Assembly: GCA_963665115.1 (NCBI GenBank)
Contig: OY762007.1
Coordinates: 96,001-160,000, forward strand
Origin: an uncultured Rivularia sp.
Lineage (GTDB): Bacteria > Cyanobacteriota > Cyanobacteriia > Cyanobacteriales > Nostocaceae
Direction of reading: 5' to 3'
Length of the DNA: 64,000 nucleotides
Shown here: piece by piece, positions 49,678 to 63,558 of the stretch
Layout of the letters: each line of letters opens with the position of its first letter
Position numbering within the stretch: position 1 is the first letter of the stretch
Position numbers and translations under genes: made by a program
Notes under the pieces: model-generated
What the model was told of the DNA's origin: nothing
The model's input: only the letters and a program-made list of their open reading frames with translations
The model's database searches: none

Positions 49678-50998
49678 TCAAATATCAAGAACAATTTTTT
49701 CAGTCTTCGGTTGAGAAATACAAATCAAAACTTCACCATCATCGGGAGTACCAGTAGGCTCTTCGTGATATGCAACTTCACCTGATTGAATTTTGCAGCT
49801 ACAGGTTAAACATACACCTACACGGCAGCTAAAAGCAGGATTAATTCCATTAGCTTCGGCAAATTCTAAAATTGTGCCGTCTCCTTGATTCCAAGTTAGG
49901 GTTTTACCAGATTCAGCAAATACAATTTCGGCTGTTTCCACACCTTCAACTGCTGTAGAAGATTCTGACGAAGATTTTTTAGGAGCTTTACTAAAAGATT
50001 CAAAGAAAACTTTATTTTCGTCAACTCCCCATTCTCTCAATCCTTCCCGCAAAGAATCCATAAATGCTGGGGAAACCGCATAAATAAAATTCTGCGTTTT
50101 CATGTGCTAATTCTTTAATCAAATCAATATCAACATAACCAACACTATGACATTTTTCTCCATCTTGAGGACGGCTGTAACGATAATGTACCTTTAAATT
50201 GGGATTTTGTTCGGCTAAAGCCATCACTTCTGGTTGAAAAGCGTGAAAATCTTCGTTTCTAGCACCATGTACAAAATAAATTTGACGGTTGGGATTTTCA
50301 ACAGTACAAGCTTTTGCCATACTAACCATCGGAGTTATTCCCACACCATTACTGATAAATACCGCTGGTGCCGATTCTTCTACATCAATATAAAACTTTC
50401 CATTAGGTGGTTTTGCTGGAATTATCGCTCCTTCTTCAATGCAATCATGCATAAAATTAGAAGCAATACCTGGAGGAAGATCCAAATTGGAAGCAGATTC
50501 GCGTTTAATTGAAAGCCGATAATATTGATTTGGATGGTTATAATCGGAAAGCGAATAAGTACGAATTACAGGTTTCTCTACTCCGGGAATATCAAGCTTA
50601 ATTGTTAAAAATTGACCAGGCTTAAAATTAGGTATTGCACTTCCATCCTGGGGTTTGAGATAAAAAGAAGTAATTTCAGAACTTTCTTTTACTTTTTTGA
50701 AAACTATAAAATTTCGCCAATCTTGCCAAACGTCTTTTTTATAATTAGCTTGAGTCTGACTTGATTCGGGTTCAGATTCTCTACTTGTTTCTTTACCCTT
50801 TAAAACGTAACTTAAAACAGAACCAGCAGTAATACCAGTTAAAGAAGAACAAACAGCGAGTTTATTCAAATCTTTATTTTTCGGATTGATTAAACCGATA
50901 GCTGCACCAGCGACAATTGTTGAAATAGCGAAACCCATGCTTGCATATACAGTAGTTTTAAGCCAGGGATTATCAATTTTTCTAAAACTTTCAACCAT
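49678..50998 (-). CDS. Membrane-anchored FAD/NAD-binding oxidoreductase with a C-terminal 2Fe-2S domain (+1 frameshift near 50074)
   Basis: PGQF, RTYSLS, GVGITP, YLCG-SPAFM after one T is removed; CRVGVCLTC...C cluster motif. Confidence 0.85.
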
Positions 50999-52150: not shown

Positions 52151-53464
52151 CTATGTCGTATACTCCGCATTAATTTTCACGTAATCGTAACTCAAGTCGC
52201 ATCCCCAAGCTTTACCTTCACCCGCGCCATTTCCAACGCTGACTTTAATAATTACAGGATTATCTACCCTTTGCATATTTACCGTATTCCTATCAACAGT
52301 TAAATCGTTACTATTATTAGTTGCGACAACATCTTTTGGCAAAGAAGATTCTGCTGCTGTTTGTTGCAAATATGCGCTCGCTGCTTTTCTATCAAACTCT
52401 AGGGGTTGTCCTTTTTCCATTAATAAAAAATCTCCCATCTGAATTCTCAAATCGCTTTGCTCGAAGGGTACTCCAGCACGCCCAGCAGCAGCAGCAATTC
52501 TTCCCCAGTTGGCATCTCTACCAAAGATTGCAGATTTAACTAATGAAGAGCCAGCAATGGTTTTGGCAATTTGTACTGCTGATTTTCCATTGACTGCACC
52601 GCTGACTTGCACTTCTATCAAACAAGTTGCACCTTCACCATCGCGAGCGATCGCCTTTGCTAAATGTTGACAAACTGCGGTTAACATTGCTTCCAATTTC
52701 TTGGCTTCGGCAGTCATTTCTGTAATCGCTGGGGTGCGGGATTGTCCGTTAGTTAAAGCAATTAAACTATCATTAGTACTGGTATCGCCATCAACCGTAA
52801 TTGCATTGAAACTCTTATCAGCAGCACGACTGACCATTTCTTGCCACAATTTAGGAGAAACCGCAGCATCGCAAGTCACAAACGCTAACATCGTCGCCAT
52901 ATTCGGATGAATCATTCCCGATCCTTTACTGATTCCGCCAATTCTTACAGGTCGATCGTGTATAGTTGTTTCTAGCGCAATCGATTTTTTCACCAAATCT
53001 GTAGTAATTATCGCCTTTGCTGCTGCGTCACTACCAGTTTCTGAAAGTGCTTCCACTAACTTAGGGATACCTGCTTTAAAAGCATCCATCTTCATTCTTT
53101 GTCCGATTACCCCAGTTGAAGCCAGCAACACCGACTTTGAAGAAATATTAAGTGTTTGCCCCAAGATCATCGCAGTTTCAAGAGCATCCAACCAACCTTG
53201 TTTACCAGTAGAAGCGTTAGCCTGTCCCGCATTGCAGAGAATAGCGCGGGCACTCTGCGACGATAATAACCGCTGACGACAATAGTCAACACAAGCCGCT
53301 GTTACCTGCGACATTGTAAACACACCTGCGGCGATCGCCTCTACATCTGAAACAATCAACGCTAAGTCTGGCGCACCCGAAGGCTTCAGCCCAGCAGCAA
53401 TTCCCCCTGCTTTATATCCTCTAGGTGCTGTAACACCACCATCTATTTCTTGCCAATCACTCAT
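52151..53464 (-). CDS. argJ: Ornithine acetyltransferase / N-acetylglutamate synthase ArgJ
   Basis: [36 protein letters not shown] and [10 protein letters not shown] motifs. Confidence 0.95.
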
Positions 53465-53920
53465 TTCTCTTCCCCTGCTTTTGCTTCTCTGCAAGAGGGG
53501 ATTATATCAATTATTAGTTAACGCGGGCAGGATAACTTATTAGTTATTAATAGGAATTGGGGATTGGGCATGGGGCATTGGGGATTGGGGATTGGGAATT
53601 GGTAAAGTTACTTCCTGCCTAGTAAAAGATTACTTATAATAAAACCGCTCAGACAAGGCAGTGCGTTGCGGAGGTTCCCTCCGTTGTCGCAACTGCCGCG
53701 CAGAGAAACGCGAAGGTAGTAGGAGTTGTTAGCTCAAAATACTGCTTATGCTCCAAGGATAAAGATTATGCAAGCAGCTTGAAAACCCTATTTTTGAAAT
53801 ATCAAGACTTTACAAAGTAGTTTCAGCAATCAATTCAGATCAAGTGTAAATTCAAAATATCAGTTTCAACACCTATACCCAATCCTGAATGCCCAATGCC
53901 CTAACACCGTATAAATACCC

Positions 53921-53973
53921 AAAAAAAAAGAGAGCTACTTGGCAGCTCTCCGGATCATCAGGGTGCATCTACT
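53921..53973 (-). ncRNA. Predicted ~53-nt sRNA, array copy 1
   Basis: AGUAGAUGCACCCUGAUGAUCCG + hairpin GAGAGCUGC-CAA-GUAGCUCUC + U-tract; TGnTATACT upstream. Confidence 0.7.
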
Positions 53974-53997
53974 TAACATAGTATATCACTATTTGTC

Positions 53998-54015
53998 GAG
54001 GGGGCTTTACCCCTC
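53998..54015 (-). promoter_or_regulatory. HetR-type inverted repeat GGGG-N5-CCCC, copy 1
   Basis: GAGGGGTAAAGCCCCCTC on the minus strand, centred 34 nt upstream of the predicted TSS. Confidence 0.6.
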
Positions 54016-54093
54016 AGTTAATTTTGGTTTAAATTTTGGTAAAGAAATTATCTTTAACTTCACAGTATTTTTATTTAGAATTGGAATAAACAT

Positions 54094-54146
54094 AAAAAAA
54101 AGAGAGCCACTTGGGTAGCTCTCCGGATCATCAGGGTGCATCTACT
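54094..54146 (-). ncRNA. Predicted sRNA, array copy 2
   Basis: Same seed; hairpin GAGAGCUAC-CCAA-GUGGCUCUC + U-tract; TGnTATACT. Confidence 0.7.
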
Positions 54147-54171
54147 TAACATAGTATATCACTATAGTCCC

Positions 54172-54188
54172 AGGGGGTGAGACCCCCT
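54172..54188 (-). promoter_or_regulatory. HetR-type inverted repeat, copy 2
   Basis: AGGGGG-TGAGA-CCCCCT, centred at -34. Confidence 0.6.
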
Positions 54189-54243
54189 TACGTAGATTTG
54201 GATAAAAATTTTGCGAAGAAGTCGCAGTTAAATATGAAAAAAC

Positions 54244-54294
54244 AAAAAAGAGAGCTATTTAAACTAGCTCTCCAAACATCAGGGTGCATCTGAT
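54244..54294 (-). ncRNA. Predicted sRNA, array copy 3 (most diverged)
   Basis: AUCAGAUGCACCCUGAUGUUUG + GAGAGCUA-loop-UAGCUCUC + U-tract; TGnTAAAAT. Confidence 0.65.
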
Positions 54295-54320
54295 TATCAC
54301 ATTTTACCATTTATGGCATG

Positions 54321-54335
54321 AGGGATTATACCCCT
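54321..54335 (-). promoter_or_regulatory. HetR-type inverted repeat, copy 3
   Basis: AGGGA-TTATA-CCCCT, centred at -34. Confidence 0.5.
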
Positions 54336-54466
54336 TGGTATTTTTTTTTGTAAAAAATTCTTTCAAAGTATTATACGAGTAATAAGAGTAGAGCTAATTT
54401 ATCGATCGATAATATCATTACGGCATATGCATAGCGGGATTATACGGATATTATCTAAATTTTCGC

Positions 54467-54521
54467 AAAAAAAAACGGAGAGCTACTTGGCAGCTCTCCA
54501 GATCATCAGGGTGCATCTACT
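54467..54521 (-). ncRNA. Predicted sRNA, array copy 4
   Basis: Same seed; GGAGAGCUGC-CAA-GUAGCUCUCC + U9; TGnTATATT. Confidence 0.7.
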
Positions 54522-54546
54522 TAACATAATATAGCATCTTAGATAC

Positions 54547-54563
54547 GAGGGGTGACACCCCCT
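54547..54563 (-). promoter_or_regulatory. HetR-type inverted repeat, copy 4
   Basis: GAGGGG-TGACA-CCCCCT, centred at -34. Confidence 0.6.
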
Positions 54564-54774
54564 ACTTATACTTTTTGTAAATTTTCTGTGAAGAAAGTTA
54601 GATAAGTTTGAAGATTGTACTATTTACTTCTTTATACTTAAGTAAAAATCGGGAATTAGCCGTTGCTAGATAAAGTATTCATGATTTTATGGGTAAAAAT
54701 ACTGTTTTATTGAATTTTGGCTAAAAAATTGAATACAGGGAGACGTTGCACTGCAACGTCTCTACATCAATTTT

Positions 54775-56260
54775 CTATTCAACCAAAGCTTTAAGTTTTT
54801 TGTCTACCAGTTGATTGGTTAACTTTGGATCGGCACGTTTTCCAGTTTTCTTGAGAAACCTGTCCGACGAAAAACCCTTTAACGTTGGTTTTGCCGCTGC
54901 GATATTTCTCGACTTCTTTAGGATTACCAGCTATTGCTTCATCGATCAGAGGTTCGAGTACTGCTGGATCTGTAATTAATTTTTCGCCAGCAAAAACATC
55001 TTTGGGAGAATCACCATTAAGTAAATCTGGTAATTTCTCTTTGGCTTTGGCATTACTAATCTCACCTTTATCAATTAGCTTAACCACCTCAGCTAAGTTG
55101 CTTGGGGTTAAATTAATTTCAGAAATATTCAGTTTTTCCTTGTTGAGATGAGCCGCAATATCCCCCATAATCCAGTTTGCGGCAGTTTTGGAATTTGCTC
55201 CTTTTTCTACAGCAGCTTCAAAATACTCGGCTGTTGCCTTCTCCTCGGTTAAAACTCGCGCATCGTATGCAGAAAGTCCCAACTCGGTTTCATAATAATG
55301 GCGTTTTTTCGCAGGTAAGTCTGGTAATTCGCTTTCCCAACTCTTTAATTGTGCGTCAGTTACCTCGATTGGAGCCAAATCGGGTTCGGGAAAATAACGG
55401 TAATCTGAAGAACCTTCCTTAACTCGCATACTAATAGTGCGTTGGGAACCTTCTTCCCAAAGACGAGTTTCTTGAATGATTTTTTCGCCAGATTCATTCG
55501 CTTCAATTTGACGTTCAATTTCGTATTCAATCGCTTTTTGAATCGCGCTGAACGAGTTCATATTCTTAATTTCAACTTTTGTGCCAAATTCCTCTTGTCC
55601 GACGGGACGAACGGAAATATTTACATCGCAACGTAGCGAACCTTCCTGCATATTTCCGTCGCTGACACCGAGATAGCGGACAATTCGGCGTAATTCTTGA
55701 GCATATTCGGCGGCTTCTTGCCCGGAGCGGATATCGGGTTCCGAAACGATTTCGATTAACGGGATACCGGCTCTGTTGTAATCTACCAAAGAATAGCTCG
55801 AACCAGAAAGGCGATCGCTACCGGCGTGAACTAGTTTTCCTGCATCTTCTTCCATGTGCAAGCGAGTAATACCAATCTTTTTACGAGTGGCGTTACCATC
55901 TTTGTCAACTAACTCAATTTCAATATGCCCGTGTTCGGCGATGGGTAAATCGAACTGAGAAATTTGGTAATTTTTGGGTAAATCGGGATAAAAATACTGT
56001 TTGCGGTCAAATTTGCTATATCTAGCGATTTGACAATTGAGAGCTAAACCTGCTTTTACGGCGTATTCTAATACTTTTTCATTGAGTACCGGCAATACTC
56101 CAGGTAAACCCATACAAATTGGATCGATGTTAGTATTGGGTTCAGCACCGAATTCTGTAGAGCTATCAGAGAAAATCTTAGTTTTAGTAGCGAGTTGACA
56201 ATGGGTTTCCAGACCAATTATCGCTTCGTAATCAGTTTTTACAGTTGTAGCAACAGTCAT
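54775..56260 (-). CDS. gatB: Asp/Glu-tRNA amidotransferase subunit B (+1 frameshift near 54857)
   Basis: IGLETHCQL, FDRKQYFYPDLPK, HMEEDAGK, YRYFPEPDL; removing one T restores GQVLKKTGKRADPKLTN...*. Confidence 0.95.
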
Positions 56261-61236: not shown

Positions 61237-63388
61237 CTACAGATTTTTTACAATTGCGCCAAAATCAGCCAACACGCGAGCGTGGTTACGTAATAACCCT
61301 AGTAAATACAGACGATTTCGTTTAATGTCCGGATTGTCATCCATTACTAACACGCTTTCTGGGGCCGTCGAAGAATGTGCTAACTGTAGGTGCTATTTCC
61401 GTTAATCCTGCTATCAGTTGTTGGTAATTCCGCTGTTGTTGTGCTGCTTGGGTTTGCGGTACTAAGCCAACAACGGCGTTATAAAATGATTCTTCGGATG
61501 ATTTCTGAAATAAGTCTTTTTGTACTAAATTGCCCGGTTCGAGCTGTTGGGTATCTAAATCGCCTTGGGCTGCTAATCTCGTGGAACGATTTACCGTTTC
61601 GTAGATTTTATCTAAGGTGCCGTTGTTACGAATTTCTTGTAGGAATAAAGCGCGATCGCGAACGTCTAGTAAGTCTTGTAATGCCCGCTCAGTATACTCT
61701 TTGTCGTTTTCTCCCAATACTGCATTAACTAAATCGTAGTCGATATGTTTTTCATCTTGTAACAACGTGCGGATGCGTTGTAAGAAGAAATCTTCTAAAG
61801 AAGCGACTAATTCGGCTTTATCTTTATTATGTGTATTCGCAAATTCCGTTGCAGTTTCTGCGAGCAACTGCTGTAAGTTAATTGCTAAATCGCCATCCCA
61901 AATAATATTAACAATAGCAGTCGCGGCTCTCCGTAATGCGAAGGGATCGGAGGAACCCGTGGGAATCATTCCCAAACCAAAAATACTTACTAAGGTATCA
62001 ACTCTATCTGCAATAGCAACAACTCTACCCGTAACAGTTTGCGGTAAAATATCATCCGCACCTCTGGGTAAATAATGTTCAAAAATCGCATCGGCTACAG
62101 CTTCCGGTTCGTTACTTTTGACAGCGTATTTTTGACCCATAATTCCCTGCAATTCCGGGAATTCATACACCATTGAACTAACTAAATCGGCTTTACATAA
62201 TAAAGCTGCTCTTTGAATATATTCTTGTTGTTGAGAATCTAAATTTAACTGCTTTGAAATTCTTTGAGCAACCGTACAGATTCTATCAACCTTTTGCCGT
62301 AAAGAACCCAAATCTTCCTGAAAAGTTACCGTTTCTAATTGCGGTAAAAAGCTTGACAAAGATTGCTTAATGTCCTTATCGTAAAAATATCTACCGTCAG
62401 ATAAACGAGCGCGAATTACCCTTTCATTACCTTTCGCAATGATATCTGATTTTTTCGGGTCGCCATTAGAAACCGTAATAAAATAAGGCAGCAATTCTTT
62501 ACTATTCTCAGCTTTAAACACCGGAAAATACTTTTGATGAGAAACCATCACCGTGGTAATAACTTCCGGTGGTAGCTCCAAAAATTCCGGTTCAAAATTA
62601 CCCACAACAGCAGAAGGATATTCGACTAAATTAACAACTTCTTCTAATAAATCGGGATAAATTTGAGCGTAACCATTATATTTCTTCGCAGCTTCTTGTA
62701 CCTGTTGAGTTATGGTATTAACTCGGGTTTGTGTATCTGCAACCACGGAAGCGGAATACAAAGTATCAATATAAAAGATAGGTTGAGCAATAGTTACGTC
62801 ATTTGGATGCAATACCCGATGTCCCCTGGAAGTATTACCGCTTTTGACAACTTCCGAATTATTTTCGATTTCCAACGGTAAAACTTTATCATCTAATAAA
62901 GCCACCAACCAGCGAATTGGACGAGAAAACTTTAAATCCCCGTCACTCCACCGCATTAACCGCTTACCTTCTAACTTAAAAATCCAATTGGGAATTGCTT
63001 CGGCGAGAATATCAGCAGTAGATTGTCCTTTGATGCTTTTCTTAACAAAAACAAAATCACCTTTATCCGTAGGACGAATTTCTAAAGCGGAAACATCAAC
63101 ACCTTGCTTTTTCGCGAAACCTTCCGCCGCCTTAGTGGGCTTGTCATCCTTAAAAGCAGCCTTCGCGGGTGGCCCCTTTACTTCCTCTTCCCTATCCGCT
63201 TGCTGTTGCGGTAAACCTTTGATTAACACAGCTAACCTGCGGGGAGTACCGTAAATCTCTACCGCATCAGTGTCAAGAAAATTTTCCTTTAAAGATTCGG
63301 GAATAAGCTGCTTCCACTGAGTTAAAGCACCGCTCAAAAAGCTTGCAGGTAACTCTTCCGTTCCGACTTCCAATAAAAAATTAGCCAT
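61237..63388 (-). CDS. glyS: Glycine--tRNA ligase beta subunit (+1 frameshift near 61362)
   Basis: [34 protein letters not shown]; removing one C restores [12 protein letters not shown]...NRL.LL...[10 protein letters not shown]. Confidence 0.95.
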
Positions 63389-63558
63389 AACACACGCGAA
63401 TATCTTTCACAATTTCAACAGTTTACCGTGGGTTTTGGTTTGGTTGGTGGGATTGGGGATAATATATTTTTTTAAACGCAGAGGAGCGCGGAGGTTAACG
63501 CAGAGGAACGCTGAGGGAGAATTTTTTAGTAATACAGTATGAGGAAGAGGTATAAAAT

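Follow-up and report, generated by a model that had tools for sequence, protein, structure and literature searches.

We propose that four predicted genes of regulatory RNAs, each about 53 nt long, represent an old sister branch of the small RNA NsiR1. They lie between gatB and argJ in a stretch of 64,000 nucleotides from an uncultured Rivularia sp., referred to here as the window. HetR would bind a palindrome in each of the four promoters and, sitting over the -35 position, repress transcription; the front end of the RNA would pair with the hetZ/patU junction and lower the synthesis of the anti-sigma factor PatU. The sister branch would be wired directly to HetR and the hetF array driven by sigma-HetZ, and both would bring the same seed onto one sigma/anti-sigma pair. 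For this reading as a whole, HetR-repressed sister RNAs of NsiR1 acting on PatU, the balance tips slightly in favour. Observed are the anatomy of the array, its conserved place between gatB and argJ, the agreement of the box with the published HetR site, the way the box accompanies hetR and disappears with it, and complementarity together with synonymous-site constraint at the junction. That the units are transcribed, that HetR binds them, in which direction it regulates and how PatU is affected, we infer. The features are as follows.

54468..54521, minus strand: unit A, predicted sRNA, 54 nt including the U-tail; terminator stem 54500-54476; 37.2 bits with Rfam RF02399
54528..54536, minus strand: unit A, extended -10 (TGn-TATATT)
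54547..54563, unstranded: unit A, HetR-type box; top-scoring site in the 8.69-Mb genome
54240..54294, minus strand: unit B, predicted sRNA, diverging most among the four; stem 54273-54249; no Rfam match
54301..54309, minus strand: unit B, extended -10 (TGn-TAAAAT)
54320..54336, unstranded: unit B, HetR-type box, one mismatch in an arm; 17.5 bits
54094..54146, minus strand: unit C, predicted sRNA; stem 54124-54101; 33.9 bits with RF02399
54153..54161, minus strand: unit C, extended -10 (TGn-TATACT)
54172..54188, unstranded: unit C, HetR-type box; 23.9 bits
53922..53973, minus strand: unit D, predicted sRNA; stem 53951-53929; 33.1 bits with RF02399
53980..53988, minus strand: unit D, extended -10 (TGn-TATACT)
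53999..54015, unstranded: unit D, HetR-type box; 18.6 bits read on the RNA strand and 22.7 on the opposite one
54791..56260, minus strand: gatB, conserved neighbour upstream of the array
52151..53494, minus strand: argJ, conserved neighbour downstream of the array

The array between gatB and argJ and its relation to NsiR1

Much of what an earlier note had said of the array from its letters was borne out. The four tandem minus-strand units described there are marked by a 15-nt core with four exact copies in the 64-kb window, each of them on the minus strand; the count is still four when two mismatches are tolerated (0.06 expected in shuffles), and the start-to-start distances are 173, 148 and 227, as it had given them. 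Its extended -10 elements were read correctly as well, TGn-TAnnnT standing in the same register in every unit (TATATT in A, TAAAAT in B, TATACT in C and D), and gene calls place the array where the note had it, with gatB upstream and argJ downstream, both on the strand of the units. Two of its claims need slight correction. The 5' core that it called invariant is exact in all four units over 15 nt, but unit B differs in the three bases preceding it. The hairpin given as GAGAGCU...AGCUCUC with a U-tract is a terminator in all four units, each recovered by a terminator scan, but a G-U wobble stands in the 3' arm of unit C in place of the letters given. Terminator-like sites in the array region number nine against 1.0 expected, and the folding z-scores across the four units are -3.8, -3.3, -1.9 and -2.1. 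These array features are real; the start sites are predicted. The main feature, a HetR-type palindromic box, was absent from the earlier description. A palindrome GGGG-N5-CCCC, or a form one base off, is present in each of the four units, ends 15 nt upstream of the -10 hexamer and is centred at -34 from the predicted start.

Several further observations concern the neighbourhood. Heptamer tandem repeats in inverted orientation (53553-53609 and 53871-53908) flank the array, as do two dispersed repeats (53643-53712 and 54742-54765) with many copies in related runs. The C-terminus of gatB (54791-54860) is off the usual frame, probably by an assembly error in a short T run, because one base at 54856 is missing from runs X6 and X2. 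At 49678-50998, ORFs resembling an FAD-binding oxidoreductase and a ferredoxin, both named by eye, overlap in different frames. One base at 50073 is missing from run X1, and the two ORFs are probably one gene split by an assembly error. A glyS-like ORF (61337-63388, also named by eye) ends abruptly, with loose ends of run X8 at 63390, and may be cut by another frameshift.

Judged from sequence, it is very probable that the units are expressed sRNA genes. Three RNA-labelled public runs give contigs over units B-D with DNA-like cover, and runs X1 and X2 extend across each of the 30 bins of an 18-kb stretch, with the spacers. One 54-nt contig corresponds to unit D over its full length. It stops at 53973, where the assembly of run X6, spanning the entire stretch, breaks as well, and this point lies about one k-mer inside a repeat common to units C and D. 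The transcript table of PCC 7120 (PMC10287535), a strain which may lack a copy, gives no unit between thrC and argJ. The sRNA table of that strain has a single core-bearing entry, the hetF-array RNA, and its lower size limit of 45 nt is near the predicted RNA length.

The RNA is conserved at the gatB-argJ locus in many genomes, as a search of relatives proposed in the earlier note revealed. A strict pattern of box, -10 element and core occurs in 131 of 300 genomes of the window's family (reversed control, 0), and the core alone in 120 of 401 phylum genomes, a few of these being chance matches. A scan with the RNA body only, which is a sample, gave at least 119 loci, and the 80 of them that are named include Leptolyngbya, Microcoleus, Lyngbya, Spirulina, Anabaena, Nostoc and Chroococcidiopsis. 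With gatB directly upstream in 80 and argJ downstream in 73 of 141 loci, the context is widely shared; in the genus of one named locus (L152) a single copy lies 142-365 nt before argJ in 17 of 18 genomes. Pairing in the terminator stem amounts to 90.3% over 64 sequences, six of its ten pairs show two-sided changes, and none of 500 shuffles reached its covariation score, a result inflated by the relatedness of the sequences. The locus is far older than the heterocyst-forming lineages. At loci L066, L076 and L254-L257 the same seed belongs to a third type of RNA body, whose stem is different and whose box lies nearer the -10 element.

NsiR1 has been described as 12 copies upstream of hetF (PMC9045159; PMC4030482), driven by promoters with DIF1, a -35 element recognised by sigma-HetZ (PMC13342950). 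The earlier note had pointed to a resemblance to its core, and rightly so: Rfam model RF02399 aligns to units A, C and D, and the 5' core is identical to that of NsiR1 of PCC 7120 over 16 nt in these units and over 14 in B. The comparison with the model that it suggested thus supported the shared core, but the three scores stay under the gathering cut-off of 39 bits and unit B gave no match to RF02399. Both RNAs are 50-60 nt long, end in a single terminator hairpin and occur in tandem copies with their own promoters (PMC9045159; PMC4030482), and the units agree with NsiR1 as short RNAs with an intrinsic terminator in their predicted structure. Beyond this they diverge. Known NsiR1 has a DIF1 promoter and adjoins hetF, whereas the window units have a HetR-type box with a housekeeping-type extended -10 element and lie between gatB and argJ. 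Their stem sequence differs from that of NsiR1, and RNAs of the window type, unlike NsiR1, also occur in lineages that form no heterocysts and, box-less, in those that have no hetR. The DIF1 motif TCCGGA is found at -35 in none of the four units and, among the matches listed, in none of 166 sister bodies.

The same genome has a canonical array elsewhere (G000, 7.50 Mb), with 11 DIF1-promoter copies adjoining hetF; together with one orphan they score 51-69 bits, and TCCGGA stands near -35 in 12/12. The orphan DIF1-promoter copy lies at a distance from hetF, flanked by lgt and a precorrin-4 methyltransferase gene (G000:C1 5759041-5759091). Since promoter and stem differ, and the canonical DIF1 array is found elsewhere in the genome, we assign the window copies to a second class: predicted RNAs with the core of NsiR1 that lack the DIF1 promoter, the hetF neighbourhood and an Rfam score above the cut-off. 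The earlier suggestion of a sibling family in a different context and with a different promoter type is supported by the DIF1-less promoters and the gatB-argJ locus. Sibling sRNAs with a common seed and separate regulators are a general class, and the present case resembles it in that homologous RNAs share one seed under different transcriptional inputs. It differs in that the sigma-HetZ input is itself downstream of HetR and the predicted target is the anti-sigma factor of that very sigma. DIF1-type NsiR1 copies outside the window's family were seen at L053 and L248 (genome G538), L249 (G609), L052, L059-L061, L074 and L078; those of G609 form an array beside a hetF-like gene, and G538 has no hetR match.

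In the titles, abstracts and passages searched, to which the founding NsiR1 papers and supplements may add, no second NsiR1 class, no HetR box at an NsiR1 promoter (some supplements may bear on this) and no role of patU as an NsiR1 target are described. NsiR1 homologues outside heterocyst formers are marked in a supplementary table from 2016 and are mentioned for Limnospira (PMC8400943), in neither case with an analysis of promoters in the passages covered.

The HetR-type box

GGGnnnnnCCC is required by HetR, whose site at hetP is a 17-bp repeat (PMC4192349). The strict form GGG-N5-CCC is present in all four units, B being one base short of the longer 4+4 form. Among the 166 bodies listed, which had been chosen by the RNA sequence only, the promoter had strict GGG-N5-CCC in 130, one mismatch in 33 and no box in three. 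On matrices made from sister promoters, the published hetP site reaches 23.5-24.3 bits (24.3 on the matrix of 100 promoters). A second matrix, built from 58 boxes of non-Nostocales type, from distant relatives, was scanned over the 8.69-Mb genome. Units A, C and D took the 1st, 2nd and 4th rank, the site upstream of hetP the 5th and that of a hetP-like gene the 17th; the genome has only these two hetP-family genes, so both were retrieved. That the box might be an RNA hairpin we rejected because its arms show no compensatory swaps among 101 boxes.

Presence of the box follows that of hetR. In 70 genomes picked by hand outside the window's family, comprising most core-positive genomes and some core-negative ones, a boxed core was found in 41 of 41 hetR-positive and 1 of 29 hetR-negative genomes; the genomes are kin and the counts are not independent. 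The sole boxed genome without a hetR match is G609, in whose family 17 of 19 genomes pass the hetR cut-off, and an assembly gap is a possible but unproven cause. In family f5, 27 of 28 genomes are without hetR, and 18 of those keep one RNA; all 18 copies are beside gatB or argJ and none is boxed, the best scoring 7.2 bits. Boxed copies are present in the single hetR-positive genome of f5 (72% complete), and in family f6 eight genomes retain a copy without a box, in a different gene context. Four named Nostoc loci have a decayed box of about 5 bits, one copy scoring -5. The published HetR ChIP lists for PCC 7120, which may lack a copy, give no peak at argJ; hetZ is also missed there.

The direct HetR promoters of Anabaena PCC 7120, those of hetP and hetZ, share the GGG-N5-CCC inverted repeat with the units, whereas the box of the window would control a predicted non-coding RNA. 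Known HetR sites are described in heterocyst formers, whereas all 41 hetR-positive genomes outside the window's family have the sister box. We consider it highly likely, by these matches and patterns of inheritance, that the box is read by HetR. Other strong HetR-type boxes in the genome (G000:C1 1108441, 4548701, 6571922 and 7218129) lie by GGDEF, DUF218, unnamed and dynamin-like genes, which are candidate direct HetR targets. In one hetR-less group (L116, L213, L215, L217 and L219), an NtcA-like sequence, GTA-N8-TAC, stands where the HetR box sits elsewhere; with one lineage it could be chance.

Predicted pairing with the hetZ/patU junction

The gene patU follows hetZ and encodes a likely anti-sigma factor (PMC7377430; PMC13342950); in this genome it gave no family match and is named only by its position after hetZ. 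Units A, C and D begin with 11 nt that are a perfect complement to positions -12 to -2 relative to the ATG overlapping the hetZ stop, and a further stretch of the RNA is able to pair farther upstream. Co-folding gains at the junction are -15.3 kcal/mol for A, -7.9 for B and -20.3 for both C and D, and -14.7 kcal/mol for canonical NsiR1 copies. With at most 5 of 200 shuffles as good taken as criterion, pairing is better than in shuffles at 16 of 28 hetZ loci and at none of four paralogue loci; at the other 12 hetZ loci it is not. An Ala codon in the site is GCA in 16/16 sequences and ranks first of 140 four-fold columns, against a background of 193 GCA among 823 Ala codons. In a genome-wide ranking of targets, the hetZ/patU site (-20.6 kcal/mol) is outside the top 20.

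Not all conservation at this place need come from pairing. A Ser-Gly pair at the 3' end of hetZ (L339:2606-2634) is coded TCC GGA in 24/25 and 23/23 hetZ genes, and this TCC GGA is located 18 nt before a hexamer GAATAG overlapping the hetZ stop and the next ATG. The two elements are probably an internal sigma-HetZ promoter within hetZ. Such an element, overlapping the site, would explain part of the local conservation, and the transcript initiated from it would start past the pairing site.

Other candidates were considered as well. The region upstream of hetF has a 16-nt complement (-34.0 kcal/mol), which is the antisense of the first array copy, and the start regions of the two hetP-family genes reach -9.4 and -4.9 kcal/mol, being poor for canonical copies too. 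A site near a GAF histidine kinase gene, the best non-self complement in the genome, was rejected with strong pairing in 1 of 20 orthologue loci, its own. The start of sigF was likewise discarded, only two of 30 loci being at or below 5 of 100 shuffles. Some sigF leaders from beyond the window's family (L299, L304-L306, L308 and L311) have a short, partial seed complement 15-25 nt before the start, with energies that are not significant. Of the three candidates compared across genomes, the patU junction alone had conserved pairing. We lean, by a little, towards the patU junction as a real target of the RNA. Families f5 and f6 and genome G402 keep the RNA without a hetZ match, so other targets must exist.

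Sign of control, other readings and meaning

In the hetZ promoter, which HetR activates, the box is centred at -45, both by our reading of the promoter in this genome and from the mapped start in Nodularia (PMC3610870), whereas in the window units it is centred at -34, over the -35 position. In 24 of 93 matches listed (counted by hand) it is 4-9 nt closer still, between -35 and -10, and all 23 copies examined in genomes without hetR retain the -10 element after the box has been lost. HetR is described to repress some promoters in vegetative cells (PMC7761841). Position over -35 favours repression, and repression by HetR rather than activation is the sign that we consider fairly probable. If HetR activates instead, the same RNAs and box would form a feed-forward arrangement, in which it turns on both the hetZ-patU operon and an RNA limiting the translation of patU, so that sigma rises over anti-sigma at an early stage of differentiation. 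Activation would agree with the behaviour of hetZ and hetP, the two HetR promoters tested in E. coli, which were both turned on through such sites in a reconstituted system (PMC13342950). It is kept alive by the tight spacing at the gatB-type locus, where 170 of 228 boxed copies share one offset (the set includes box-selected loci); further, -34 and -45 are about one helical turn apart, and a scan with the sigma-70 consensus gave a match to none of the four unit promoters, which are without a recognisable -35 match. The box covering -35, or standing between -35 and -10 in many paralogues, speaks against activation, and so does the fact that promoter and RNA outlive the loss of hetR and box. 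We regard the activating circuit as rather unlikely.

Co-occurrence cannot separate genes that are inherited together, and hetZ tracks hetR in most of 36 genomes. The box might thus be read by another regulator travelling with hetR in filamentous cyanobacteria, or be an element of an alternative-sigma promoter; the boxed genome G609 without a hetR match, as well as top matrix sites beside genes not known as HetR targets, such as those of GGDEF and dynamin-like proteins, would fit this. It is nevertheless improbable: the consensus is the published HetR site (24.3 bits), both hetP-family promoters were retrieved with it, G402 has hetR and the box with no hetZ match, and G538 has a HetZ-related gene and neither hetR nor box. 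A different doubt concerns the target. HetR-controlled RNAs could act on the hetF leader, on a housekeeping mRNA or through a protein that binds the seed, and the strong hetF complement, a seed unchanged in lineages without hetZ or full-length hetF, and binding of NsiR1 by PatR in CLIP (PMC11797042) point that way; against it stands the conserved pairing found only at the patU junction among three candidates, which is compatible with further targets. That one of these, and not patU, is the conserved target we find unlikely. Finally, ordinary repeats are also present in the region, and the units could be repeated DNA elements or terminators with no RNA product. Here promoter, seed and stem are kept in register while spacers diverge, in many families and at one locus, and the seed is that of an experimentally shown sRNA, NsiR1, which makes such an explanation very improbable.

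Returning to sister RNAs repressed by HetR and directed at patU, we tentatively extend the proposal, while holding the extension itself for doubtful. The gatB-linked boxed RNA would be the ancestral NsiR1 and the missing post-transcriptional part of the HetR/sigma-HetZ/PatU circuit, set by HetR and itself setting the sigma:anti-sigma ratio, in essentially all hetR-bearing cyanobacteria, and the hetF array would be its sister under opposite or delayed input.

Few direct targets of HetR are known, and its job in filamentous species without heterocysts is described as an open question (PMC7761841; PMC8400943). The 70-bp unit promoter with its strong HetR-type site offers a ready reporter for the role of HetR where heterocysts are absent. 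Experiments with deletion or antisense of NsiR1 would have to allow for the extra gatB-linked copy. A study from 2026 puts the sigma/anti-sigma pair at the centre of cell-fate choice (PMC13342950), and overexpression of NsiR1 raises HetR (PMC9045159). If pairing with patU is true, the NsiR1 family acts on that very pair, which could help to explain the rise of HetR. If our readings are true, HetR would have a testable job even in species that make no heterocysts.
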